Shown here: positions 20,394 to 33,100 of the stretch, one piece after another
How positions within the stretch are numbered: the first letter of the stretch is position 1
Layout of the letters: every line of letters starts with the position of its first letter
Virus record (IMG/VR): IMGVR_UViG_3300045995_000108
Location: 1-64,000 of that record
Source of the DNA: a virus
Reading direction: 5' to 3' (one strand)
Length of the DNA stretch: 64,000 nucleotides
Made by a program: the position numbers and the translations under genes
The notes under the pieces: model-generated
Database searches by the model: none
The model's input: the letters and a program-made list of their open reading frames with translations, nothing else
Told to the model about the DNA's origin: nothing

Positions 20394-20418
20394 AAGGGCA
20401 GCAATGCCCTTCTCCTTT
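20394..20418 (+). terminator. Intrinsic terminator
   Basis: AAGGGCA-GCAA-TGCCCTT hairpin followed by a pyrimidine tract. Confidence 0.65.
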
Positions 20419-20451
20419 GACTGAATATTCCATTTAATGTACAATGGTATC

Positions 20452-21312
20452 ATGAAAATACAATTAGTCTCCGATCTTCACTTAGATATGTACGATATGT
20501 CGCTCCCGGGCGGCGATGTGCTGATTTTGGCTGGCGACATTTGTGAAGCCCGCGAGTATGGCAAGGGCAATTACAACAAAGACTGGGTAATGAAGCCAGG
20601 CGACAATCCTGGTAGACGGGAAGATCGCTACCTCCGCTTTATGCACGAGGAAGTCACAAAGTACAATAAAGTGTTCTACATTGCTGGTAATCACGAGCAT
20701 TGGGGCACAAAAATGTACAAAACCCACCAGTTTATGCGCGAAAATGCCCCAGCTAATACTACAGTGCTGGAAAACGAAATCTGCGTACACGAAGGCGTTT
20801 TATTTCTAGGTGCTACATACTGGACAGACTTTAACAAAGGTGATGGTCTGACAATGTACAATGCTGGCGCAGGTGCCAGTGCTAACAGCCAAATTGGAAT
20901 GAATGACTACAGGCACATCAAGCACCTGTCGCATGGAATTTACCGCAAGCTGCTTCCAAAAGACATTCTGGAAATCCATTACAAGTCGCGGCAATACTTT
21001 AACCATATTCTGAGCGAGAATCGTCAGAAAGAAAATCCTCTGCCTGTTGTAGTGATGACGCATCATGCACCTACTGCACTTAGTATTCCTGAGTGGTACA
21101 AAAACGATTACCTGATGAATGGTTGCTACTACAGCGACCAAAGTGATATGATACTTGACAACCCACAAATCAAATACTGGGTTCACGGACATACTCACCA
21201 ACCATTTAGGTACAATGTGGGCGACGATACTGAAGTTATCTGCAACCCACGGGGCTATTATGGGTACGAATCGTCTGCCAATAGTTATACCCCACTTGAG
21301 TTGGAGATCTAA
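20452..21312 (+). CDS. Calcineurin-like metallophosphoesterase
   Basis: SDLH, AGD, GNHE, THHAP, HGHTH, CNPRGY. Confidence 0.92.
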   Translation: MKIQLVSDLHLDMYDMSLPGGDVLILAGDICEAREYGKGNYNKDWVMKPGDNPGRREDRYLRFMHEEVTKYNKVFYIAGNHEHWGTKMYKTHQFMRENAPANTTVLENEICVHEGVLFLGATYWTDFNKGDGLTMYNAGAGASANSQIGMNDYRHIKHLSHGIYRKLLPKDILEIHYKSRQYFNHILSENRQKENPLPVVVMTHHAPTALSIPEWYKNDYLMNGCYYSDQSDMILDNPQIKYWVHGHTHQPFRYNVGDDTEVICNPRGYYGYESSANSYTPLELEI

Positions 21313-21806
21313 TGTCAAATAACAATACAGCCGGCACAGTTGGCCAAGCTGGTGCTCAAGCAATCTTGGATATGCTTAAGCAAACGCCGTTGCATAATCA
21401 AAACTGGAATGCAATCGCAGGTGTCGGTGCAGCGGGACCAATTGGATCAACTATCCCTGGCAGCATTGTTACTGGTGGGCTGACAACGGGGAGCGTTATT
21501 TCGTCAGGCGCTGCGTCAAGCGGCTACGCTGCGAGCTTCCAGATTGCACCGACGGGCACATTGACGGCATCGAACTACAATGCTGGGCTTGACCTTAGGG
21601 GTGACGCTGACATCTTGATTGCAGGAATGAGTCTCAAAGATTTTATGAAGCAGGTAACGCTACGTCTTAACTTGATGGTTCCTAACCCAGAGATTGAAAA
21701 GCAGTGGGATGAGTTGCGAACGTTGGGTGAAGCATATCGTGCAGTAGAGAAGGAATGCTTAGAGAAGGCCAAAGTTTGGGACATTCTCAAACGGGACAAC
21801 ATCTAA
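21312..21806 (+). CDS. Hypothetical phage protein
   Basis: Low-complexity N-terminus; helical C-terminus ending EKAKVWDIL. Confidence 0.7.
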   Translation: MSNNNTAGTVGQAGAQAILDMLKQTPLHNQNWNAIAGVGAAGPIGSTIPGSIVTGGLTTGSVISSGAASSGYAASFQIAPTGTLTASNYNAGLDLRGDADILIAGMSLKDFMKQVTLRLNLMVPNPEIEKQWDELRTLGEAYRAVEKECLEKAKVWDILKRDNI

Positions 21807-21991
21807 TGATTACTGTAACCCTCCCTGCAGATGTGCTGCTGGTAGCAGACGCTATTAAGTGGTGTGCTCTCAATATCCCAGACAAAGAAGGATGGGATAT
21901 GCAAGCAGACTTTAGTGCTAAGACGAAATACAGATTTGAGTTTGACGATGCGAGATATGCTACGTTATTTGCCTTGAAGTGGGTACATTAA
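21806..21991 (+). CDS. FxL[KR]W-array protein
   Basis: Ends FEFDDARYATLFALKWVH. Confidence 0.8.
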   Translation: MITVTLPADVLLVADAIKWCALNIPDKEGWDMQADFSAKTKYRFEFDDARYATLFALKWVH

Positions 21992-21998
21992 ATAATGA

Positions 21999-22286
21999 AT
22001 GCCCATACCATTACACCACATTAACCTATACAAACATGGAACAATTGCATACTATAATGGCAATCCATACTTCATTGATTACGTTACAATTCGTGGCCAT
22101 GAACTATTTGTTCGTCTCGAGGGCTTACGTGATACCGTTGCGCCTCACGACATTAGCGTGGAGGTAACAGTAATTGACTTCAACAGAGAAAACGGCGGAC
22201 CAAGGGCATGGGTTGACAGCAATGCGAGTCCTAATGAACCAGTACCCATTCAAAGTCCAGGCCTACCAGACGACTGGGTCTTCTAG
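21999..22286 (+). CDS. Hypothetical protein (non-member inside the array)
   Basis: ORF lacks the motif. Confidence 0.6.
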   Translation: MPIPLHHINLYKHGTIAYYNGNPYFIDYVTIRGHELFVRLEGLRDTVAPHDISVEVTVIDFNRENGGPRAWVDSNASPNEPVPIQSPGLPDDWVF

Positions 22287-22584
22287 CTGGGGCGATGCTG
22301 ATCTGATCAGCTTGCGGAAATACTGCATGGACGATGCAGCGTTTACAATGAAGGTAATGAAGAATCTTCAATACGGTCCCATTGCTACAGTGCCTAACAT
22401 TATTCAGGTTACTGGCCCGCACACAGTTGACGGCGAACCTTGGTATCAAATTGACCTTGACTATGAAGCTGCGCAATGGTTACGTGAGCTCGGTGATAAT
22501 CGAGTTATTGAGATAAAAGACATTGATCGCTGCTTCAACATCCCAGAAGATATTTACATCATGACTAAACTGAAGTGGGCTTAA
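22234..22584 (+). CDS. FxL[KR]W-array protein (variant); start uncertain
   Basis: Ends FNIPEDIYIMTKLKWA. Confidence 0.7.
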   Translation: MNQYPFKVQAYQTTGSSSWGDADLISLRKYCMDDAAFTMKVMKNLQYGPIATVPNIIQVTGPHTVDGEPWYQIDLDYEAAQWLRELGDNRVIEIKDIDRCFNIPEDIYIMTKLKWA

Positions 22585-22585
22585 T

Positions 22586-22957
22586 ATGGCACTGGAATCA
22601 TTTGATACACTGTACTGCAAGATAAAAGCCAATGGCGGATGGAAGCCTGGCAAGTTGATAACTTTTACTGGACGGCAATCAGGTAAGTCGACGTTCATGC
22701 AACAGTATATGACACAATGGGTCATGGAGCCTATACAGCCGTTTGCAAGAGTGCAGCTCGGCGCACCACTGCGCGATATGGTTGTGTGCGATGTGAACCA
22801 AGAGATTCAAGACTGGTTAATGGCAAACTTTGAGCCAGGTAAACTGTGGAAATACTTTACGACAAAAGACATTCACGGTGATTACCCTGGGCAGGGCAGG
22901 GATCGCGTTGCTATGCGTCAAGATGTTTATACTGCCCTTGTGTTGAGGTGGTCATGA
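22586..22957 (+). CDS. FxL[KR]W-array protein with N-terminal Walker A-like segment
   Basis: GGWKPGKLITFTGRQSGKST; ends YTALVLRWS. Confidence 0.8.
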   Translation: MALESFDTLYCKIKANGGWKPGKLITFTGRQSGKSTFMQQYMTQWVMEPIQPFARVQLGAPLRDMVVCDVNQEIQDWLMANFEPGKLWKYFTTKDIHGDYPGQGRDRVAMRQDVYTALVLRWS

Positions 22958-23145
22958 GTTACGAGTATTACGTTCAACGCAAGTCAGGTATTGACAGACT
23001 TGAAAGCGAAGAAGCTTGGTTAGAACGAATGGAAGATATGCGGCAGTGGTGCTATGACAGATTTGAAAAATGGGGCAGATCGCAAGAAATATTTTGGTTC
23101 CAGAAAGAAGAAGATTACGCAATGTTTATGCTGAGGTGGGCATGA
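22954..23145 (+). CDS. FxL[KR]W-array protein
   Basis: Ends FWFQKEEDYAMFMLRWA. Confidence 0.85.
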   Translation: MSYEYYVQRKSGIDRLESEEAWLERMEDMRQWCYDRFEKWGRSQEIFWFQKEEDYAMFMLRWA

Positions 23146-23330
23146 GCAAGTTTATTAAAGTCACAATAGACAAGGACAAGTTCTTTGAGGCTAAGAAGTG
23201 GGCTAAGAAAACATTTGGGAGAGCAAACCCAAATAAAGGACCGTGGAGCGACATGGTGTGGTATGCACATCATCACTTTTACTTCTCTGTCCCTGAACAC
23301 GCAACGATGTTTATGTTGAGGTGGATGTAA
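23142..23330 (+). CDS. FxL[KR]W-array protein
   Basis: Ends FYFSVPEHATMFMLRWM. Confidence 0.85.
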   Translation: MSKFIKVTIDKDKFFEAKKWAKKTFGRANPNKGPWSDMVWYAHHHFYFSVPEHATMFMLRWM

Positions 23331-23548
23331 TGGCAAAAGTATTGTTAACTGATGCAAAGTTTGAGTACAGGTATGCTCAACAGATTTTTAAAGAGCGTGA
23401 GTCGTGGGCACGGGAACATTGCCCGTCGTTTATGCAAATGGACATAGTTGATGTGAGTGACTATACTTACGAGTACGACCAAATTGCAACATACGAGTTT
23501 GGCGACGAGAAAGATGCGTTCTGGTTTACGACTGCGTGGCAATCATGA
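23330..23548 (+). CDS. FxL[KR]W-array protein (variant)
   Basis: Ends YEFGDEKDAFWFTTAWQS. Confidence 0.8.
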   Translation: MAKVLLTDAKFEYRYAQQIFKERESWAREHCPSFMQMDIVDVSDYTYEYDQIATYEFGDEKDAFWFTTAWQS

Positions 23549-23766
23549 TGCGAGTAAGACTTAAAGACAGGATGAAGATACACGCCGAGGGCGGAAACTC
23601 GCAAGCATATCTTGAAGAGGTGTATGCTTGGTTGGAAGAAGTGATACCTAACCCGCCCCTGCCAGAGGAACAGAATTTTACATTTGGTAACGGTGAATAT
23701 TTTGGACACATAGAGTTTAAAGACGATGACTACGCTACGTTGTTTGCGCTCAAATACGGGTACTGA
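23545..23766 (+). CDS. FxL[KR]W-array protein
   Basis: Ends IEFKDDDYATLFALKYGY. Confidence 0.85.
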   Translation: MMRVRLKDRMKIHAEGGNSQAYLEEVYAWLEEVIPNPPLPEEQNFTFGNGEYFGHIEFKDDDYATLFALKYGY

Positions 23767-23776
23767 GGAACAAGGA

Positions 23777-24031
23777 ATGATTAAGACAGTAATCAGGTTT
23801 ACGCCGGATATGTACGCTGACCAAAAGACACAACTTAAAGTTGATGTTGAAGCTTGGCTGGTTGAAATGTTTGGACCAGCAGTACCACGCAATAACAATA
23901 AGACACGCAGGCGCAAAAAGTGGTCGATAAAGACAAGCTACTGGGATACTAATAATCCGTCAGGAACAGTCGAAGTGTTCACTCGCTCTCCACAAGATGC
24001 GACGCTGGTGGCACTAAGGTGGGCAAAATGA
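23777..24031 (+). CDS. FxL[KR]W-array protein
   Basis: Ends SPQDATLVALRWAK. Confidence 0.85.
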   Translation: MIKTVIRFTPDMYADQKTQLKVDVEAWLVEMFGPAVPRNNNKTRRRKKWSIKTSYWDTNNPSGTVEVFTRSPQDATLVALRWAK

Positions 24032-24246
24032 CAGCATACGAATCAGCAGCACAGTTTACCCGTGTGTTTCCGTACTGTGTTTCCTTTCCTCGCACTGACG
24101 ATTGGTGGAACGGAGAGTGGCGAGATATAAGCAACTGGTGCTCCGAGACAATAGGTGGTGTTGTGACACATTGGGAATACATGGACAAGTGTTTTTGGTT
24201 TAAGAGGGAAGAGGACAAAACTCTGTTTTTACTAAAATGGAAATAA
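24028..24246 (+). CDS. FxL[KR]W-array protein
   Basis: Ends FWFKREEDKTLFLLKWK. Confidence 0.85.
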   Translation: MTAYESAAQFTRVFPYCVSFPRTDDWWNGEWRDISNWCSETIGGVVTHWEYMDKCFWFKREEDKTLFLLKWK

Positions 24247-24431
24247 GCGACATGATTGGCGTGGCAGTTGAGCGTTGGGATTACACCCACAGGGCGTGGG
24301 TGTGCACTTGGCTTACTGAAACATTTGGCGAACGTGGCAAGGAGACTTGGTTATTAGATCAAGACTACGATTTGCTTACGCTATGCATGACACCGGAGAT
24401 ATACACTCTGTATAAACTAAAATGGGAATAA
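24237..24431 (+). CDS. FxL[KR]W-array protein
   Basis: WLTETFG; ends EIYTLYKLKWE. Confidence 0.8.
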   Translation: MEISDMIGVAVERWDYTHRAWVCTWLTETFGERGKETWLLDQDYDLLTLCMTPEIYTLYKLKWE

Positions 24432-24622
24432 CTTTTGATCATCGGCCTGATCGCCAGTATCATTATGAGACAGTGATAAATTATAGGCCATTGCGACATA
24501 GTATGCTTGCTTGGTTGCTAGAAACATACGGGCCACCGGGTACTGAATGGGACGGCTACGGCTCTTGGATTAAAATTAGAAGCGAGGAAGATGCAACATT
24601 CTTCTTACTAAAATGGAGTTAA
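24422..24622 (+). CDS. FxL[KR]W-array protein
   Basis: WLLETYG; ends SEEDATFFLLKWS. Confidence 0.85.
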   Translation: MGITFDHRPDRQYHYETVINYRPLRHSMLAWLLETYGPPGTEWDGYGSWIKIRSEEDATFFLLKWS

Positions 24623-24858
24623 CAACAGTAAGTCCAGAGACGTTGGACAAAGTGTGGCAAAAGTGGCGAACGGAGCATAGTGCACCAAATGATGTGTGGG
24701 AGCGAAGCTATCAAAGAGTTACTCGGCGCTTTGGTGGCAAGCAGTTTGAAGAATGGTTGTTTACTGAAGGCGCAGTAGTGCAACAGATTAACGGCAAACG
24801 CCACTTACAGTTTATGGATGAAGAACAAGCATCTTACTTTTTATTGAGGTACGCATGA
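24613..24858 (+). CDS. FxL[KR]W-array protein
   Basis: Ends LQFMDEEQASYFLLRYA. Confidence 0.85.
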   Translation: MELTTVSPETLDKVWQKWRTEHSAPNDVWERSYQRVTRRFGGKQFEEWLFTEGAVVQQINGKRHLQFMDEEQASYFLLRYA

Positions 24859-25073
24859 TACCCAGACTACCATACTTGCAAAATGCAGTAAGTGGATATC
24901 ACAAACTACACCCAAGTAGTATTTGGTACCCAAATGCTTATAACTCGTATATCCAGTGGATGCAAGAACAAGGAGTCATTATGCCGATAAAGATGGAGGG
25001 CGATATAGATAGCGTCCGTATAGAATTTACTGATCCAGAATCAGAAACATTGTTTGTATTGAGGTGGGCATGA
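24855..25073 (+). CDS. FxL[KR]W-array protein
   Basis: Ends IEFTDPESETLFVLRWA. Confidence 0.85.
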   Translation: MIPRLPYLQNAVSGYHKLHPSSIWYPNAYNSYIQWMQEQGVIMPIKMEGDIDSVRIEFTDPESETLFVLRWA

Positions 25074-25291
25074 TGAATTGGAACTACTTTGTTAGGGACA
25101 CATGTGACTCCCCATTGGAGAACCCGTACTTTGAATGGGCACGAGAACAGTTTGGTAACATAGGCCCACGGTGGGATGCAAACTTCCAGGGATACTGGTT
25201 TATGAACAAGGAGGATGTCACTCTGTTCATGTTGCGTTGGTCAGGGCACCCACATTTAGGAGAGGTTGAAACAGATGAGTCACACAATTAA
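25070..25291 (+). CDS. FxL[KR]W-array protein
   Basis: WAREQFG; YWFMNKEDVTLFMLRWS. Confidence 0.85.
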   Translation: MMNWNYFVRDTCDSPLENPYFEWAREQFGNIGPRWDANFQGYWFMNKEDVTLFMLRWSGHPHLGEVETDESHN

Positions 25292-25502
25292 AGGCGATTG
25301 CAGTGCAAGCGAGCATGCCGCCCGATTTACGCGGGACAAATATAGTATTCCGTTTGATGAAACCATTGTCCCTAAGTTTGAGGCAGAGTTTAACTGCATA
25401 CTTGATTTTGGCAAGGACAAGCCAGATGCATATATGTATCCAGATTGGATTCAGTTTGAGACTGAGCAGGAAATGATGATGTTTCTGCTGCGATTTGCAT
25501 AG
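25275..25502 (+). CDS. FxL[KR]W-array protein
   Basis: Ends IQFETEQEMMMFLLRFA. Confidence 0.85.
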   Translation: MSHTIKGDCSASEHAARFTRDKYSIPFDETIVPKFEAEFNCILDFGKDKPDAYMYPDWIQFETEQEMMMFLLRFA

Positions 25503-25529
25503 TAAATAATCTTATTGTATAATGTTAAT

Positions 25530-25937
25530 ATGGTAAAACCTACACGCCCTTGGCCCAATCCGCATCGCAATGCTGCTGAACTAGCATTGTATTCGGCACA
25601 GATAAAAGTGATGAACGCTACGAAAAGCATAGCAGCTAAAGTGCTGTGGAAGTTTGGATCTGGACCAGAAGTAGTGGTTAAGTGGCCTGTTGGTTGGGTA
25701 TTGCTACATCAGAACGATGATGGTAGCGCAGTTAGCGCAGACTCAGCTGATCCAAACGATCACTATCGCCCATGGCTTGAAGCCAACGTAGGGAATCAGG
25801 GTTGGGACTGGGATTGGAAGATTAGTGGTATAGCTGCTGATAACGGTTTTGGAACAACAGGCGTTGATACAATATGTATCAAGCTGCGGAAGAAACAGGA
25901 ACATTTCGCAAGCGTAATTGCGTTAAAATGGGCATAG
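25530..25937 (+). CDS. FxL[KR]W-array protein (long)
   Basis: WLEANVG; ends FASVIALKWA. Confidence 0.8.
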   Translation: MVKPTRPWPNPHRNAAELALYSAQIKVMNATKSIAAKVLWKFGSGPEVVVKWPVGWVLLHQNDDGSAVSADSADPNDHYRPWLEANVGNQGWDWDWKISGIAADNGFGTTGVDTICIKLRKKQEHFASVIALKWA

Positions 25938-25997
25938 TACAAGAGTACAGTATTTTATCCTTAAATCAGTTATACATATTCATTTAAGGTGAACACA

Positions 25998-26408
25998 ATG
26001 AGATTAATGACAGCAGTTAAAGCGTTTTTTGATAAACGCGAGCAAGCTAAAAAAGCAGAGGCCAGAGCAGCATTGATATGGCCGCAAGCGTCACGAGTAG
26101 TGGATTTTTACAAAGGGTATCCGTATGTATTTGCTGTCCCTTGGCAGTGCTATGATAATGAATATTGGTCTCAGTTTTCTGATTCTTACGAAGGGATGGG
26201 AGAACTCATGGACTGGTGTCGCGAACACGATTTCAAAGAATTTCGCAGCGATGTACATAGAGTAAGTTTGTCAAATACGTACAATTCTCACAATGCGTCT
26301 GAATATATATTTGACGAGATGGGTGGCGGCGATGTAAAGTTCTTTGCTTTTACGTCATCTGAGGATTTTTGTTTCTTTGCACTACGCTGGGGTTACATTG
26401 CCAGTTAA
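25998..26408 (+). CDS. FxL[KR]W-array protein (long)
   Basis: WCREH; ends FAFTSSEDFCFFALRWGYIAS. Confidence 0.85.
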   Translation: MRLMTAVKAFFDKREQAKKAEARAALIWPQASRVVDFYKGYPYVFAVPWQCYDNEYWSQFSDSYEGMGELMDWCREHDFKEFRSDVHRVSLSNTYNSHNASEYIFDEMGGGDVKFFAFTSSEDFCFFALRWGYIAS

Positions 26409-26703
26409 CATAGGAAGCATTTCCTACTCTGAAGGCGGATTTGATGAGTTTCCTGCGGGTAGCGTTATGTCTAAAGTAGATTACATAGCATACCCTACTG
26501 GAAAAATACCAAGGCCGCCAAAAGGTTACCACTTTCAGATTCAATGCGTGGGTGCTGCCAATTGGGAGTTAGTTAGTCAAAGGCTTGCACAATGCAGATC
26601 AATGATGGAGTTTAATTTTAGATATAACGGTGGCAATAGCTACTTTGATGTTCATTTAACAGACGAGAAAGATATCACATGGTTGAGACTTGCCCTGGCA
26701 TAA
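26398..26703 (+). CDS. FxL[KR]W-array protein (variant), TTG start
   Basis: Ends LTDEKDITWLRLALA. Confidence 0.65.
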   Translation: MPVNIGSISYSEGGFDEFPAGSVMSKVDYIAYPTGKIPRPPKGYHFQIQCVGAANWELVSQRLAQCRSMMEFNFRYNGGNSYFDVHLTDEKDITWLRLALA

Positions 26704-26915
26704 AGCGCACAGTACACTTGAAAGAGTATCCTAAGTTTTGGGAACGGCTGCGTATTTCCGTATTGAAGTCCAGCTATCAAACAACCGCAGCAGGTGCAGA
26801 GCAAGTGATGAAAGAAGAGTTTGGTATTGACGTGGATATACGATCAGCAGACAAGTTAGGCACAGTAATGATGGATGAGGGAACCTATTCTTGGTTCATA
26901 CTACAATGGAGTTGA
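26679..26915 (+). CDS. FxL[KR]W-array protein
   Basis: Ends DEGTYSWFILQWS. Confidence 0.75.
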   Translation: MVETCPGIKRTVHLKEYPKFWERLRISVLKSSYQTTAAGAEQVMKEEFGIDVDIRSADKLGTVMMDEGTYSWFILQWS

Positions 26916-27142
26916 AAAAAGTAACACGCTCTAAGTTCAAGGTAACTATTGAGTGGCCTGAGTTTGATCGCGAAATGCTGTCATGGGCTGAGACTATTTT
27001 TGGCACAGGTGGTGGTCGCGGCACTTGGCGGTATGGGTGGGGTCACTGGATCAAAAGCCAAGACTCTACTCACCGCTTTTTCTTCCGGCGCGAGGAAGAT
27101 GCAACAATGTTTATGCTAAGGTGGGCAAACAATGGAAGATAA
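26906..27142 (+). CDS. FxL[KR]W-array protein
   Basis: WAETIFG; FFFRREEDATMFMLRWA. Confidence 0.85.
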   Translation: MELKKVTRSKFKVTIEWPEFDREMLSWAETIFGTGGGRGTWRYGWGHWIKSQDSTHRFFFRREEDATMFMLRWANNGR

Positions 27143-27536
27143 AGACGCAGATGCAGTGTCAGTAATAGGCAAGATTATCATGCCTGTGATGCGCAAACTC
27201 GCACCTGGATTGATAGCACAACAGATCGTAGGTGTGCAACCAATGACATCCGTGATTACTACCAACGGAGAGTTAGTGTTGGGCACTGCATTTCTTGGCG
27301 GCTCTAAGGAAGGTGAATGGTTTACTGTATCTATTTCTAAGCCCTTCTCCTTTTACTTTGGTAAGGTAGAGAAGAAAACAGACGAGTACAGGAACTGGTG
27401 CATTACAACGTTTGGCGAGTCTTACAATCACCTAACTGACCAATGCTTTTGGTTTGAGCGCGACGATAGGTTCTACTTCCGTAATGAGGCGGATAGAATG
27501 TTGTTCGTATTGAAATGGACACCCAATGGACAGTAA
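27132..27536 (+). CDS. FxL[KR]W-array protein fused to a major-capsid (gp23 Gol-like) peptide
   Basis: IIMPVMRKLAPGLIAQQIVGVQPMT; WCITTFG; FYFRNEADRMLFVLKW. Confidence 0.85.
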   Translation: MEDKDADAVSVIGKIIMPVMRKLAPGLIAQQIVGVQPMTSVITTNGELVLGTAFLGGSKEGEWFTVSISKPFSFYFGKVEKKTDEYRNWCITTFGESYNHLTDQCFWFERDDRFYFRNEADRMLFVLKWTPNGQ

Positions 27537-27816
27537 AGAAGCAATGTGGTTCCACGCGAACTACAACATACAAGAGTTTACAATACAAGATGACATTCGT
27601 TCCTTTGACGATGGACCAATGACCTACCAAATTCGCGGCGACAGAGGAACAGCAACAATAAAGCTGCCTACTCTTGCAGTGGAACGTCTTGTGCAAAATG
27701 CTAAGATTGGATTTGATGAACTTGAACGAGCAAGGGCAAGGGCAGATCATCCTAATGTGCAGGAAGCGTATGACGCATATATCACGCTACTTGCACTAAG
27801 TACAAAATATGACTAA
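27526..27816 (+). CDS. Hypothetical protein (non-member)
   Basis: Ends HPNVQEAYDAYITLLAL. Confidence 0.7.
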   Translation: MDSKEAMWFHANYNIQEFTIQDDIRSFDDGPMTYQIRGDRGTATIKLPTLAVERLVQNAKIGFDELERARARADHPNVQEAYDAYITLLALSTKYD

Positions 27817-28096
27817 CAAAGATGACGAAGAAATGGCCCGTGCGATGAGTGATTTCCTGGTCCCATGGGATTGGAACGATGTCATTTTGCACGAATACAA
27901 AGACGAGCACCTTGATTGGTGCCGTAGTAATGGATTGGTGTTTGGTAAGGACTTTTACATGCACATAGCAGAAGGTACTGAGCCCTCATACAACCCAAAG
28001 CAGAAATGGCCTTTCCCAGAATACAAAAAGATCCATCATTATCTGTTTAAAGACGCAGAAATGGCAACAGCATTTACACTAACATTTTTGACTTAA
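27809..28096 (+). CDS. FxL[KR]W-array protein (variant)
   Basis: WCRSNG; ends YLFKDAEMATAFTLTF. Confidence 0.8.
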   Translation: MTNKDDEEMARAMSDFLVPWDWNDVILHEYKDEHLDWCRSNGLVFGKDFYMHIAEGTEPSYNPKQKWPFPEYKKIHHYLFKDAEMATAFTLTFLT

Positions 28097-28121
28097 AAAC
28101 AATCTTATTGTACAATGCAAC

Positions 28122-28424
28122 ATGGAAATAATGTCGCGTGAAGAATTCAAGGATAGGTTTAGTGTTGACTTTAACGAAGTAATACGTGCAGACCATCCAC
28201 TTTGGATTCCTGAAAATGATTTTGCACCTAAGACTAAGTGCATAAAGTTTGTACTGACTACGAAGCTTAACTTTACGAGTGAAGCAAAGTATGAATATTG
28301 GGAATGGTGCAACAGTACGCTGAACGGCATCGTGCGTTGCTTTTCTTCTGGTGACGAAAATGAATGGTGGGGTTTTTCTGACCCTGATGACGTTGTTATT
28401 TGGACTCTTAAGTGGGCAAAATGA
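28122..28424 (+). CDS. FxL[KR]W-array protein
   Basis: Ends WGFSDPDDVVIWTLKWAK. Confidence 0.85.
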   Translation: MEIMSREEFKDRFSVDFNEVIRADHPLWIPENDFAPKTKCIKFVLTTKLNFTSEAKYEYWEWCNSTLNGIVRCFSSGDENEWWGFSDPDDVVIWTLKWAK

Positions 28425-28735
28425 AATACTTTTTACAGTGGTTAGTGAATGATATTAAGACGAGCTGGGCAGTAGATGCAGAGTCTCGTGCGAGAATGTG
28501 GGGTCATTTTTTAGACGTGGCTAAGTTTTTAGTTAGAATTTTTTCTGCGATAACGTTGATTGTCTCGGCAATATCAATTATTTTAATAACGGCAGAAGAT
28601 GGTCGCATTAACTGGGTCCGCGTTAGTGGTGTTATGATTGCATTACTGGTATTGAACGGTTCTATTTTCCTTGCTGGCAAGCTACGTAAATTTCGCAGCG
28701 AAAAAGATCAGCTAGTGCAAATGCTCAAAGAATAA
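28421..28735 (+). CDS. Two-TM membrane protein (non-member)
   Basis: Two hydrophobic stretches. Confidence 0.7.
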   Translation: MKYFLQWLVNDIKTSWAVDAESRARMWGHFLDVAKFLVRIFSAITLIVSAISIILITAEDGRINWVRVSGVMIALLVLNGSIFLAGKLRKFRSEKDQLVQMLKE

Positions 28736-28736
28736 A

Positions 28737-28982
28737 ATGAAAAAGCTGGTGTCACGTATCAAGGAACGTAAGGGCAACGACCACTATGTGGAAGTGCTGC
28801 TCTACGAACAAGCTACGCACCCAGACGAGTTTAACGATTACTACGACATAGACGAGGCTGATCTCATTGCTATTGCTGATTGGGTTACAGCGCACGAACT
28901 TGGTAAGCGTACATCACATAACCATTGGAAGCTAAACAGCAAAGAAGCTGTGACAATGTTTTTACTACGGTGGAACCAATGA
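28737..28982 (+). CDS. FxL[KR]W-array protein
   Basis: Ends SKEAVTMFLLRWNQ. Confidence 0.85.
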   Translation: MKKLVSRIKERKGNDHYVEVLLYEQATHPDEFNDYYDIDEADLIAIADWVTAHELGKRTSHNHWKLNSKEAVTMFLLRWNQ

Positions 28983-29185
28983 TAAAGCAAGCGTGGAAAA
29001 ACTATAAGCACATAGCAGAGGACTACAAAACCAAGGACGAGTTTGGAATATCATTTGATGGTGCTCGTTTTTGGAGCGACCTTCACGAACAGTTTGGTGC
29101 ACACGCTGACGGATTAGGTGGAATTTACTTTGACACAGAAGAAGGTGAACTGTGCTTCATCTTGAAGTACACAAAAGCAAAATGA
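28979..29185 (+). CDS. FxL[KR]W-array protein
   Basis: Ends IYFDTEEGELCFILKY. Confidence 0.8.
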   Translation: MIKQAWKNYKHIAEDYKTKDEFGISFDGARFWSDLHEQFGAHADGLGGIYFDTEEGELCFILKYTKAK

Positions 29186-29385
29186 TAACGTTCTCTGAGC
29201 GCGAGTGGGATGCAGTAAAAGAAACGTTGGCAGAAGACCACGGACCAACGATTATGCTGCTCCGTAATAGGTGCAAAGAGACGTTGGGATTTACTGTACG
29301 TTACGGCGTTTACGCCGCTCAAGAAGTGCATTTAGACTTCTTTGATGACACCAAGGAGACTTGGTTTAGGCTTCGTTACCTTTAG
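29182..29385 (+). CDS. FxL[KR]W-array protein
   Basis: Ends LDFFDDTKETWFRLRYL. Confidence 0.8.
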   Translation: MITFSEREWDAVKETLAEDHGPTIMLLRNRCKETLGFTVRYGVYAAQEVHLDFFDDTKETWFRLRYL

Positions 29386-30088
29386 ATCTACATTTTTCAA
29401 AGTGCCATTGCTTCATTACACCGCCCCCGCCACTTTTTCCGCAATGCGGACAGGTGACTATTATCTTTTGTTTTCCCCTATTAGCTTGCGCAATTTTTTC
29501 AATGTGCTCTGCCGTCCGTGGAGGCTTCTTTCGGCCTCGCTGGAAATCCGCAATTTTTTGGTTGTGCTCGGCTGTATGAACCTTACCTATATTTTTGGCC
29601 CCGCATTTAGCTTTAGTAGATTCCGAGTGTGTCTGTCCAAGTCTGGATTCTCTTATTTTTTGGATGTGTTCGGGCGAATTAGTGAGGCCTTTTCTGTTTT
29701 GATTTCCTTTACTGGAATTAGAAATTTTTTCCCTAACTTCGGGCGGCCGTTCGCGTCCCAAACTTCCACCGTATAATCCATCTTCAATTACTAAGTTTGC
29801 CCATTGTTTTGAAATAACAATATCGTTATCTTCAGAGAATTTAAGAGCATAGCTCACTAAAGAATGTATGTCAGTAAACAATTCACACCAAATAGTTTCT
29901 ACGTTGGATTTTCCGTGTTTAGCTAAATGAGCTTTCCAAATTTTCCCAGAGCCAGAATATTTGTAGGGATCTGGCCTGGTCGTTTTTCCGAAGTATTTCA
30001 ACCCAGTGATGGTATGCTGCTTTATATAAAGCCAAGTTGGCTTAAAAGTAGCTTGCTTTATATTTAAATTTTTAGTATAATGGTACAT
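29366..30088 (-). mobile_element. Free-standing GIY-YIG (Seg-like) homing endonuclease with NUMOD3 repeats
   Basis: WLYIKQHTITGLKYFGKT...YSGSG..W catalytic domain; repeated HSES/HTAE..KI NUMOD3-like units; C-terminal CPHC; opposite strand with its own ATAAATA box. Confidence 0.82.
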
Positions 30089-30147
30089 AGTAATATTTAT
30101 GCAAATGATGCTAAAGAAACCTTTTATTGACCTCAGAAAAGAACAAT

Positions 30148-33100
30148 ATGATTGATGATGCAGTTTTAGAATATGGGAAGCAAGTCAACGAGCTGATGGG
30201 CCCAATGGGCATCACAGCAGATGTGCACGAGCACGAGTCTTGCTACTACTTAACAGTGGACGGAAGCAAGCTGTATCCAACTGATGCAGAGTGGGTGGCA
30301 AACATTGGTAAAGGCTTTGTTGAATTCGTGCATGTCTTTGTGCCCAAGATGTTTACTGAGATGGAAGCAGCAACGATCAACGAGACTCGCGTTGAGTTTC
30401 GCATTGGTACACTGTTTGACATGATGGTACGGATTAAAGAATATGGCACCGAAGAGGATTAATATGGCGATCTCGCCCGTCATACAAGCCCGCATTGACT
30501 ACCTTAGGGAACTGCGGACCAATAACCCAATGTGGCTTCGCACTGCGATACAAACCATTCTGCGTGTGCCCAAGCGCCCAATGCGCCCTATACCGCAGCG
30601 GCCCACACCAACAACAGTTAGGAACTATGCTGCGAATCGTGCTGCACGAATGGCGCACCAACAGACTTACAAAGAGTGGAAGGAGGAGTTTAAAACCAAC
30701 CGCCCTATTACTTACTGGCTAACAGAGATACTGCCTAAATACTACTCATTTCTATTAGACAAAGTTGATGACAAGTGGTACGATGTGAAAGACAAGCTTG
30801 GTAACTTCCTGATCCATCGTGCAGACAGATGGAAGACTGGCGTAAGCCGTTGGGACTACGAGACGGCTGACGAGTTGATGCTGCAAGTGAACTTTGAGCA
30901 GTATGTAGAGTTTGTTGAATCTGTGTACTCACATCGTTACATCAACACAATGGTGCACCGCAACCGCAAAGCTGATCCTGGTGGTGTAGAAGAAAAGAAG
31001 TGGGTAAAAATAGACAAAGCAGCAGATCGCTATCCGTGGCTGCACTGGAAAAAGTATCGCAATAGTGAGTATGCTCTGCAATACTTACACTTGCAAATGG
31101 CTATTCCACACGATGATTACACTCCGCGGGACGAGATCCAGCGTCTCTGCCGTGCAATGTGTCTCTATGTGTGGTGGACGCAAGTTAGGCCAAACCGTGG
31201 CTCATCAGAAGAGAAATCAGGGCTGAAGGCATTCCGTGACCGTATTACTGCACAGTACGGCGAAGAAGATAAATGGTCCTACTCTGCGCTCACAAAAGAG
31301 CAGCAAGAAGAGTACAGCAAACTGATGCACGCCGACGATGATTTAGAACGGAAATGGTTAAATGAGGACACTGATATGCTGGTCCTTTTGGTAAAAGAAC
31401 GCCTAAACCTTTGGCAATAAATCAACTTTAATGTACAATGTAATATGACTACTGATGAACTAATCCTTTATGTAATTTTGGTGGGTTGCGTATTGCTATT
31501 TCTGGTACGCTTCTTGAAAGCAAAGGCCATAATGAATGAGGCCATGTCGCATGTTGTCGCAAAACACGTACATGAGATCAAAACGGAGATGCATGGCGAA
31601 ATGTTTTATTGGTTTGACCAAACAACTGACCAGTTTTACGCACAAGGCAAGACGATGGAAGAATGTGTTGTGCAACTTAAACAGGTTTATCCAGGGCATG
31701 TCTTTTTATATACAACTGTAGCAAACCAACAGTATTTGCTGGTTGGTCCAGATTTCGAGCCCATCCTGGTCGATGATGGCAGGACTCTTACTAAGAAGGA
31801 TTTTGAATGAGCGACGAGAAGAAAAAGGTATATCTCAGAACTGAGGAAGAGCGAGTTGCCTTCCTAGCTGAGCAACGTACTAAATGCAGGGAGTCAGAAA
31901 GCGCAGTTTTTGAAACTGAAGTTTTGTTTAAATACAATGCACGGACATTTTGGTGGGAGTATCTAGAAAAAGCACAAAAAATTGCACCAACAATTATGAC
32001 ATTCTGTGAATTTTGGGACGACAAAAACTCGTACCCGAGGACTATAGCGATTGATAATGCACCTGTTAGCTTGGCTAAGTGACGGAAATTGGTACAACTT
32101 AAAATTTTGGTCAGCTTGGATTGTGATATGTTATGTACTTTACTTACTAATGGATTTTGAATGAAAGACGAACTCGAACAGGATCTTTGCAAAAAGTATC
32201 CAAAGATTTTCAAAGACAATCGTCATCCTGACGCTCGCGTTTCTGGAATGCATTGGGGCATTTCCGTGGGTGATGGCTGGTATCATGCCATCAACAACGG
32301 CTGCTCGCTAGTGCAGAATCACATTGACCACTCACGCAAGCAACGTGTGCAAGCACTGCGATACAACCGCGCGATTAAACGTGCAAAAGGTGGGGACTCG
32401 TCCAGTCTACGCAAGACTTTTGCAATGAAAGACGGCACACTGACTCAGTGGCAAGAAAACGCTTTGCAAAAAGTATTTGATGAAGGGATGCAATTCAAGC
32501 CAGTGCCTGACGCTTGTGAACAAGTGATTGCAACGCAAGTCAAGGAAAAGTTTGGCGACCTGCGCTTCTACTACCAAGGTGGCGACAGCTTCTGCGGCGG
32601 CGTCATTGACATGATGGAAGCAATGACCTCTACTACTTGCGAAGACTGCGGCAACGTAGGTGCCAAGCTTGGCGGCGGGTGGATCAAGGTTCGCTGCGCA
32701 CCGTGCATACTTGGCTTCAAGCAATCAATGGCTGACTACGAAGTTGCAGATGACGAGCTAAGTGATCGTAATACCTAATGAATAAGATTTACTACGAAAA
32801 AGTGGGTCGCAAGTACGTGCCAGTGGCAGAGTACGACTCTATGTTTATGGATTCGTTTGCTAAAGGCAATCACCTGGTGATGTGCTATCCAGGCGGAACG
32901 TCACGCCGCTTTAACATTGAGCCTGCACTTGCTCCTATGATTGCAGCGGGTAGGTTTGCAGAAGACGAAATGTGTAGGATTATGGTTCTGAAAGCGACTG
33001 AGATGCGCCCGCAGTCAACCCCCGTCACTCCTGCGCAAAAAGACGCCTGGCAAAAACTCAGCGAAGCATTTGGTGACACTTCAACTGTGCTGCAAGGTGC

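Follow-up and report, generated by a model that had tools for sequence, protein, structure and literature searches.

The subject of this analysis is a tandem array of small genes in an uncultured large freshwater phage (IMG/VR record IMGVR_UViG_3300045995_000108), located on a single contig of 115,428 bp, the first 64,000 nucleotides of which are referred to here as the window. Proteins of the array share a conserved C terminus, and the codons of that terminus appear to serve a second time, as the Shine-Dalgarno (SD) sequence or the start codon of the gene that follows. The array looks like a clean and widespread instance of translational coupling of the ordinary kind rather than a novel capture system resembling integrons. 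Coupling alone is textbook biology; what is new is how far a single conserved protein terminus also acts as the signal for expressing the gene behind it, in a very large undescribed phage family. An earlier note on this DNA had read the 3' ends of these genes as translational couplers, a putative role for which sequence statistics give good support, in this array as well as in over 100 contigs of other phages.

The array (21806..29385) extends over ~7.6 kb and contains ~29 tightly packed small open reading frames (ORFs), all on the plus strand, of which 24 are paralogous genes (61 to 136 aa) supported by hidden Markov model profile search and ~5 are divergent or non-family ORFs. A profile built from the last 45 residues recovered the 24 members with E values of 2e-14 to 4e-4, together with two more weak candidates, and found no family member outside the array in the rest of the 115-kb contig. 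Each member comprises a variable N-terminal part and a common C-terminal module of ~45 to 55 residues with the pattern W..E.FG ... W ... F.F..E.DA..F.L(R/K)(W/Y/F), usually followed by 0 to 2 residues and the stop codon. An AlphaFold2 model (100 homologues; predicted local distance difference test score of 86) has the predicted order alpha-beta-alpha-beta-beta-alpha, with the motif F-x-L-(R/K)-(W/Y/F) closing the last, C-terminal helix. L69 and W71 are conserved at ≥90% among the 100 homologues. Retention of the motif with CGN codons where no gene follows shows that its conservation is at the protein level. Genes overlap at 18 of 25 array junctions (7 as ATGA, 1 by a single nucleotide, and 10 by longer stretches; overall range, 1 to 25 nt), a frequency of 72% compared to 35% in the rest of the contig.

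In seven members, Leu-Arg-Trp/Tyr is spelled (T/C)TG or CTA, then AGG, then TGG or TAC, and the first base of AGG lies 8, 11, or 13 nt before the next ATG. All seven AGG junctions listed in the earlier note are present in the DNA. Four have the form TTG AGG TGG or CTG AGG TGG followed by one codon and an ATGA overlap, or its Arg-Tyr variant: TTGAGGTGGTCATGA (TTG AGG TGG TCA TGA; 22943..22957), in which GAGGTGG is the putative SD sequence, the next ATG is at 22954, and the stop codon is at 22955-22957; CTGAGGTGGGCATGA (CTG AGG TGG GCA TGA; 23131..23145; next ATG, 23142); TTGAGGTACGCATGA (TTG AGG TAC GCA TGA; 24844..24858; ATG, 24855), the Arg-Tyr form; and TTGAGGTGGGCATGA (TTG AGG TGG GCA TGA; 25059..25073; next ATG, 25070). 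The others are TTGAGGTGGATGTAATG (TTG AGG TGG ATG TAA TG; 23316..23332), where the ATG at 23330 overlaps the stop codon by 1 nt, CTAAGGTGGGCAAAATGA (CTA AGG TGG GCA AAA TGA; 24014..24031; next ATG, 24028), and CTAAGGTGGGCAAACAATG (CTA AGG TGG GCA AAC AAT G; 27116..27134), with an ATG at 27132 and an 11-nt overlap. Predicted pairing with the 3' end of 16S rRNA (anti-SD duplex energy) ranges from -6.9 to -8.5 kcal/mol across the seven, with values, in order of position, of -8.5, -8.2, -7.8, -8.1, -6.9, -8.3, and -8.1. Eight array junctions reach -6.9 kcal/mol or stronger, their GAGG core and ATG being 5 to 10 nt apart. In member 25070-25291, Leu-Arg-Trp is internal, with CGT as its Arg codon (25235; junction region, 25235..25277), and a conserved 16-codon tail supplies the predicted SD sequence: GGAGAGGT (25259-25266) lies 8 nt before the ATG at 25275 (-8.7 kcal/mol).

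A second type of junction places the start codon inside the motif itself. The four ATGs that the earlier note had placed in Lys/Gln-Trp codons exist as described, three in AAA TGG (24235..24240, ATG 24237; 24420..24425, ATG 24422; 24611..24616, ATG 24613) and one in CAA TGG (26904..26909, ATG 26906). They are the sole ATGs usable for those ORFs and have anti-SD energies of +1.8 to -2.2 kcal/mol, i.e., no SD sequence; the start at 24237, for example, has an energy of +1.5 kcal/mol and a 10-nt overlap. Orthologues with N termini that align from residue 1 confirm the start at 24422 (MEITLTRRPD in database protein P0001 and MNIQFKHRPG in L091:6071).

Other members spell the motif Arg with CGN codons. 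As the earlier note had reported, the member ending at 25502 uses CGA (25491..25493) and the last array member, ending at 29385, uses CGT (29374..29376); the former closes a putative transcription unit, the next gene having its own predicted promoter, and the latter has no downstream gene on this strand. To these we add three cases beyond that list: the CGT at 25235 described above, the member ending at 26408, with CGC (26385..26387) six codons before the stop and the next start 58 nt after it, and the member ending at 28982, with CGG (28968..28970) at an ATGA-coupled junction (ATG, 28979) that has a weaker predicted SD sequence (-5.1 kcal/mol).

The codon choice can be compared to the usage of the genome as a whole, a comparison the earlier note had proposed. 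In the long ORFs of the contig, AGG accounts for 5 to 7% of Arg codons; at the motif Arg, it is found in 7 of the 8 members whose next start lies 8 to 13 nt on (binomial P = 6e-8 against a 7% background) and in none of 4 uncoupled members (Fisher P = 0.010). This contrast within the window supports selection for a putative SD sequence. When the proteins of 20 family junctions were held fixed and their upstream codons were redrawn from genomic usage, the summed anti-SD energy was -57.0 ± 5.9 kcal/mol compared to -95.2 kcal/mol observed (z ~ -6.5), and none of the 2,000 resamples was as low. A canonical SD sequence is in use by the host, since the other starts of the genome are enriched for TAAGG, AAGGA, and GGAGT. 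Lys codons follow the junction type as well. Lys is AAA where its last A begins the start codon of the next gene, and AAG (giving a weak AAGTGGG) in 3 of the 4 Lys-type junctions with a start a few nucleotides downstream, the exception being AAA at 27536. We found no signal of RNA structure masking the SD sequence: mean unpaired probability over positions -14 to +3 was ~0.42 at AGG junctions and 0.52 ± 0.15 at control starts, and minimum free energy z-scores of junction folds scattered around 0.

The same junctions recur in other phages. IMG/VR and JGI contigs yielded further arrays of the family, and a pattern scan with TTTNTNTTGAGGTGGNNATGA matched at least 116 IMG/VR contigs, many from phages of 100 to 340 kb, with at least 501 family ORFs at their loci and up to 16 per piece. 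A wider set, in which ATG, GTG, or TTG was accepted as a start, comprises at least 404 nonredundant motif junctions; all counts that follow for this set are among the matches listed. At coupled junctions, AGG provides 250 of 325 Arg codons (77%) against a background of 7.5%, and still 136 of 211 (64%) once the junctions matching the search pattern are removed. The motif Leu is TTG in 69% of cases compared to 22% in the background. Starts are confined to offsets of 8 (259 junctions), 11 (54 junctions), and 13 to 14 nt (32 junctions), and the start-in-motif form NNA-TGG occurs at no fewer than 73 junctions (AGA, 45; AAA, 19; CGA, 9). Across the arrays L009 to L018, the commonest junction is TTG AGG TGG NNA TGA. 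Read directly from the DNA are the junction sequences, the bias in codon choice, the way this bias follows junction type, and its occurrence in many phages. A 36% GC metagenomic contig (L001:1-5060, and likewise L002) carries ~25 tandem genes of a sister branch that end in ..EDA.AFKLRFGL*, nearly all with TTA TGA (ATGA) overlaps and with AGA or AGG as the motif Arg.

We therefore consider it likely, with reasonable though incomplete confidence, that the array consists of early polycistronic units of tandemly duplicated small genes that are coupled by termination-reinitiation, either via an intragenic SD sequence or via an SD-less NNA-TGG start. The coupling itself, the transcription units, and the duplication mechanism are what we infer. 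Under this hypothesis, host RNA polymerase would transcribe early polycistronic units headed by three sigma-70-like promoters, the first ORF of each unit probably being leaderless and the small ORFs behind it being chained by overlaps. The first candidate promoter, TTGACT-17-TACAAT (20417-20445, within 20417..20454), has an ATG 7 nt after its -10 element and is likely the leaderless start of the first transcription unit, running into the array. The second, TTTGCA-18-TATAAT (25494-25523, within 25494..25532), has its -35 element within the final codons of the member before it, and an ATG at 25530 lies 7 nt after the -10 element. The third, again TTGACT-17-TACAAT (28088-28116, within 28088..28124), is followed by an ATG at 28122, 6 nt after the -10 element. 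Two constraints, one at the protein level and one at the nucleotide level, would then be superposed on the motif. Where the next start lies 8 to 14 nt after the first Arg base, the motif would be spelled (T/C)TG AGG TGG or CTA AGG TGG, and the resulting GAGGTGG or TAAGGTGG could pair with the 3' end of 16S rRNA at a distance of 5 to 10 nt from the next ATG, which shares bases with the stop codon (ATGA or TAATG). Such an intragenic SD sequence may hold the terminating ribosome for reinitiation on the next ORF. In the second type, the basic residue would be spelled NNA (in this array AAA or CAA, in other arrays AGA or CGA), which places the next ATG within NNA-TGG, and reinitiation over the 10-nt overlap, with no SD sequence, would presumably involve a short backward movement of the ribosome. 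Because the junction lies inside the repeated unit, each duplication or unequal exchange between similar 3' ends would recreate a coupled gene.

A phage-specific promoter consensus, TTTGAC-N17-TAYAAT (TTTGAC ... TTAWTGTAYAAT) preceded by TTAWTG, has 14 occurrences in the contig, all of them on the plus strand (20434, 25512, 28105, 31428, 55623, and nine other sites). At five consensus sites an ATG follows the -10 element by 6 to 7 nt, which suggests leaderless mRNAs or first ORFs; most of the others have a leader beginning AGTGGCTTAGTAAG.

Several observations weigh against coupling by SD-based selection as the full account. The coupled junction at the gene ending at 28982 uses CGG, and an SD sequence cannot be obligatory, because four junctions in the window have none. 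Members are paralogous, and junction counts are therefore not independent. At other sites where residues are identical, members share the same codon in 62% of cases against 42% expected, so that residual shared descent is present. In the wide set, AGG is also found at 50 to 59% of uncoupled junctions (n = 14 to 17), and with so small an uncoupled class the difference from coupled junctions is not significant (P = 0.39); the bias may therefore be partly inherited or serve another role at the nucleotide level. Most of the seemingly uncoupled cases in that set are GTG or TTG starts at offset 8, and at several uncoupled junctions a dead ATGA is left with just a very short ORF behind it, suggesting that their neighbours were recently lost. 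The wide sample is evidence of strong nucleotide-level conservation, but it does not separate present function from inheritance.

An alternative hypothesis, possible but in our estimate well short of probable, is that the 3' end and junction are primarily a recombination substrate, a coding-sequence analogue of the promoter-early stem-loop (PeSL) cassettes of T4-type phages; such a role would be compatible with that of an SD sequence. Short homology of the TTGAGGTGGnnATGA type, plus up to ~50 nt of similar 3' sequence, would let phage recombination excise, insert, and permute genes, and any gene landing behind a member would be translated automatically. PeSL-mediated shuffling is an established precedent (PMC2839356, PMC4122927). 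In nucleotides, paralogues of the window are alike mainly over their 3'-terminal 18 to 51 nt (63 to 89% identity), similarity beyond the 3' ends being limited to one shared promoter motif and two short two-copy matches that are probably due to chance. In four related contigs, the flanks are conserved while the array between them forms a hypervariable island, and 20% of coupled downstream genes have no family signal.

Two related arrays, L010 and L011, which do not belong to the phage of the window itself, are informative about recombination. They share homology blocks of 67 to 91% identity, but the order of their genes differs and stretches the size of a gene have been gained or lost (A z B C D E P F G g2 q H h2 I J ... 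in one; A B X P F q H Y y2 D E I z W J ... in the other). Unrelated upstream genes are joined to the same downstream gene via TTGAGGT..TCATGA. Module z moves together with the CTACGATGGCTAT that precedes it, which places the exchange point within the last codons of the upstream gene. The earlier note had proposed that breakpoints be mapped between related genomes; here, in line with its prediction, 11 of 14 block ends fall ≤8 nt from a gene boundary, compared to 8.5% expected (P = 5e-10). A truncated member tail, ..MMFVLRYS*, is found in a 190-nt gap of L010 (3650-3844), where it is coupled directly to the next gene; the gap looks like the scar of an intragenic deletion or exchange.

However, any mechanism of rearrangement combined with selection against disrupted genes would also leave boundaries at junctions, and since selection against broken genes gives the same picture, the mechanism of recombination is inferred. 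Exact shared stretches are only 9 to 17 nt long. The conserved nucleotides match the anti-SD sequence and keep SD-like spacing, neither of which a recombination substrate requires. The 68% of downstream genes that are paralogues are not the diverse cargo of a capture system, and orthologues of members in distant phages (40 to 58% identity) indicate that members are old rather than recently captured. The claim of a homology patch in the earlier note therefore stands in part: the 3' ends are similar and modules end at junctions in L010 and L011, but purifying selection predicts the same, and the mechanism does not follow. The 17-nt identity cited in that context is exact: GCGAGGAAGATGCAACA, encoding (S/R)EEDAT, occurs at 24582..24598 and again at 27090..27106. 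Shared ancestry suffices to explain it, because the two members are among the closest paralogues (37% identity over the last 58 aa) and the stretch encodes the conserved EEDAT. We tentatively entertain the further idea, to which we give no better than a minority chance, that the 15-nt junction (T/C)TG AGG TGG NNA TGA is a self-propagating module combining helix end, ribosome binding site, start, stop, and recombination microhomology. If so, large freshwater phages would gain a rapidly reshuffled library of small early proteins, each arrangement being translated without signals of its own.

Contigs of four other freshwater sequencing runs (X5 to X8) match 20400-30200 in short, near-identical pieces that are too fragmentary to use, and no insertion, deletion, or usable joint was seen in them. 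One pond contig of run X5 matches only 25051-25073 and 25115-25180, with flanks that are unlike the window and encode family-type motifs (..FWFRNEADRT.. before and ..GHNGFYFAEE.. after). This contig represents either a relative that has diverged or a recombinant whose joint falls within the conserved 3' end.

Less probable by far is that the AGG and TTG spelling is a frozen accident, inherited from an ancestral copy and without present function. The members are indeed paralogues, their synonymous sites are incompletely randomized (the 62% against 42% given above), and both the AGG content of uncoupled junctions in other contigs and the dead ATGA remnants would fit such inheritance. Yet AGG members have a mean protein identity of 29%, and all 21 of 21 pairs keep the rarest Arg codon of the genome. 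The spelling is also kept in hundreds of members on more than 100 contigs of differing GC content and codon usage, and it tracks junction type, with AGG at SD junctions, NNA at start-in-motif junctions, and CGN at the uncoupled junctions of the window. The orthologues A and A' switch from CGA to AGG along with a changed downstream neighbour.

A last possibility, that the SD-like GAGGTGG close to the stop codon causes neighbouring ORFs to be made as fusions by frameshift or read-through, superficially resembles prfB in having an SD-like element shortly before a stop, and might draw on the natural two-domain proteins of the family, but we reject it as extremely unlikely: relative to the upstream ORF, the downstream one is in the -1 frame; a slippery heptamer is absent, the codons preceding the stop being variable (TCA, GCA, ATG, AAA); an ATG at a constant offset opens every downstream ORF; and fused proteins arise more simply from loss of a stop codon. 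The two-domain proteins are P0028 and P0150, database entries with two family modules in tandem in one chain, which loss of the stop codon at a junction would yield.

The earlier note had also likened the array to an integron that captures new cassettes, an analogy that finds no support in that form. Like integron cassettes (IntI, attI, attC, Pc), the array consists of promoterless genes in one orientation behind an upstream promoter and varies by whole genes. Integrons, however, rely on a tyrosine recombinase and attI/attC sites and carry unrelated genes, whereas the array has none of these elements, its genes overlap, and most belong to one paralogous family (24 of ~29 ORFs in the window); expression would here proceed by translational coupling. 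No recombinase domain of the IntI type, and no attI site, was found in the scanned array members or adjacent ORFs. Inverted repeats of the attC type were absent from the array junctions, whose folds are unremarkable, and because the genes overlap, there is no intercistronic space for such an element. Family-wide, 250 of 368 coupled downstream genes are clear members (68%), 44 are weak, and 74 have no signal (20%), among the matches listed. Several members have orthologues in distant phages at 40 to 58% identity, and the genes are thus old paralogues, not recent captures. With mostly paralogous downstream genes and no capture elements, the array looks as though one family has been duplicated in tandem and shuffled; such duplication, together with unequal exchange and with the junction as part of the repeat unit, explains the "self-chaining" of the earlier note without capture machinery.

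Other counterparts are known. An intragenic SD sequence at overlapping gene pairs is the rule in most prokaryotes, and its removal cut reinitiation in four of five Escherichia coli pairs, being strictly essential in one and costing 60 to 90% in three (PMC6728339). The array resembles these termination-reinitiation pairs (Huber et al. 2019, PMC6728339; reviewed in PMC12548453) in its codirectional genes, its -4 and -1 nt overlaps (ATGA and TAATG), and an apparent SD sequence in the last codons of the upstream gene, 5 to 10 nt before the start, with synonymous choice bent to keep it; overlapping neighbours and an SD motif at workable spacing are both present in the array, and coupling itself is predicted. 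It differs in that the SD sequence is written in the conserved Leu-Arg-Trp motif (TTG AGG TGG) of a single family and in that the same 15-nt junction recurs 7 times in the array and hundreds of times in other phages, alternating with the SD-less NNA TGG.

The PeSL cassettes of the hyperplastic regions of T4-type phages (Arbiol et al. 2010, PMC2839356; Comeau et al. 2014, PMC4122927) offer a second comparison. As there, short conserved sequences carrying an expression signal flank small nonessential early genes in a hypervariable region, and the repeated element coincides with the ends of gene-sized insertions, deletions, and permutations (here, between L010 and L011). PeSLs, however, are promoter-terminator pairs in an intergenic spacer, whereas the junction is coding sequence plus SD sequence, start, and stop, with no spacer. 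A PeSL acts on transcription, while the array junction would act on translation and is much shorter (9 to 17 nt exact). PeSL cassettes are also recognized by circular excision products (minicircles), while for the arrays, known from contig sequences, neither minicircles nor recombinants were seen. No PeSL-type promoter with stem-loop was found between genes: two promoter motifs lie within the array (25494-25523 and 28088-28116), without an adjacent stem-loop.

The junction is an unusually clean natural case of dual coding, in which a single short sequence is under constraint twice over, for the protein terminus it encodes and for the translation signal it carries; which Arg or Lys codon is chosen shows which of two coupling designs operates. 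With the signature TTGAGGTGGNNATGA, arrays of this very large and unannotated family of small early proteins can be located in large phages from the environment. Should recombination also be guided by the junction, the notion taken from PeSLs that exchange occurs at expression signals would extend from transcription signals to coding sequence.

The family itself is large and uncharacterized. An exhaustive profile search gave 1,932 clusters (50% identity) at E ≤ 1e-3; the best 150 of these 1,932 matches are all small (44 to 141 aa), with the module at or near the C terminus in every one. Entries for the family in the Atlas are viral "hypothetical protein" clusters only. Pfam and PHROGs, scanned with 20 members, contained no match to the family. 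Sequence-profile searches of the PDB returned nothing below E = 0.17, and Foldseek with the family model returned nothing from the PDB at E ≤ 0.001. A wide VIA-align comparison was uninformative, its best Z-score of 5.4 falling on generic alpha/beta sandwiches (L10, ACT/RRM-like folds). Scans of viral and metagenome contigs with member 24422 and with P0001 gave no match, and the same kind of scan with P0151 matched only the L001/L002 array, at 39% identity. Six further loci (L003 to L008), located via a flanking phosphoesterase (38 to 40% identity), contain no family members.

The phage was detected in riverine, pond, and wetland metagenomes. Its contig genes include PrkA/DUF444/SpoVR, an ATP-dependent DNA ligase, and TctA/TctC; a tRNA gene search of the 64-kb window found none, and a search of the GenBank phage collection at the nucleotide and protein levels found no near relative. 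ORFs scanned beside the array encode a metallophosphoesterase, a NUMOD3 endonuclease-like protein, and others without a Pfam match. The NUMOD3 ORF (29366-30088, minus strand; 240 aa) is homing-endonuclease-like and converges on the last array gene with a 20-nt overlap. Within the array, the non-family ORF at 28421-28735 (plus strand) encodes a probable membrane protein with the hydrophobic stretch FSAITLIVSAISIILI... and is ATGA-coupled to the preceding member via CTT AAG TGG GCA AAA TGA. Member 27132-27536 (plus strand) has an N-terminal stretch that resembles the start of the T4-type major capsid protein, matching Pfam Gp23 at positions 3 to 32 (E = 1.2e-5) and PHROG 138. Homologous Gp23-like fusions (MTDPKLIIPMLRKVLPGIIAQDIVG...LRWS) are present in the arrays of other phages (L010:3844-4152 and L011:5675-5983), and the fusion is therefore a conserved subfamily, not a one-off.

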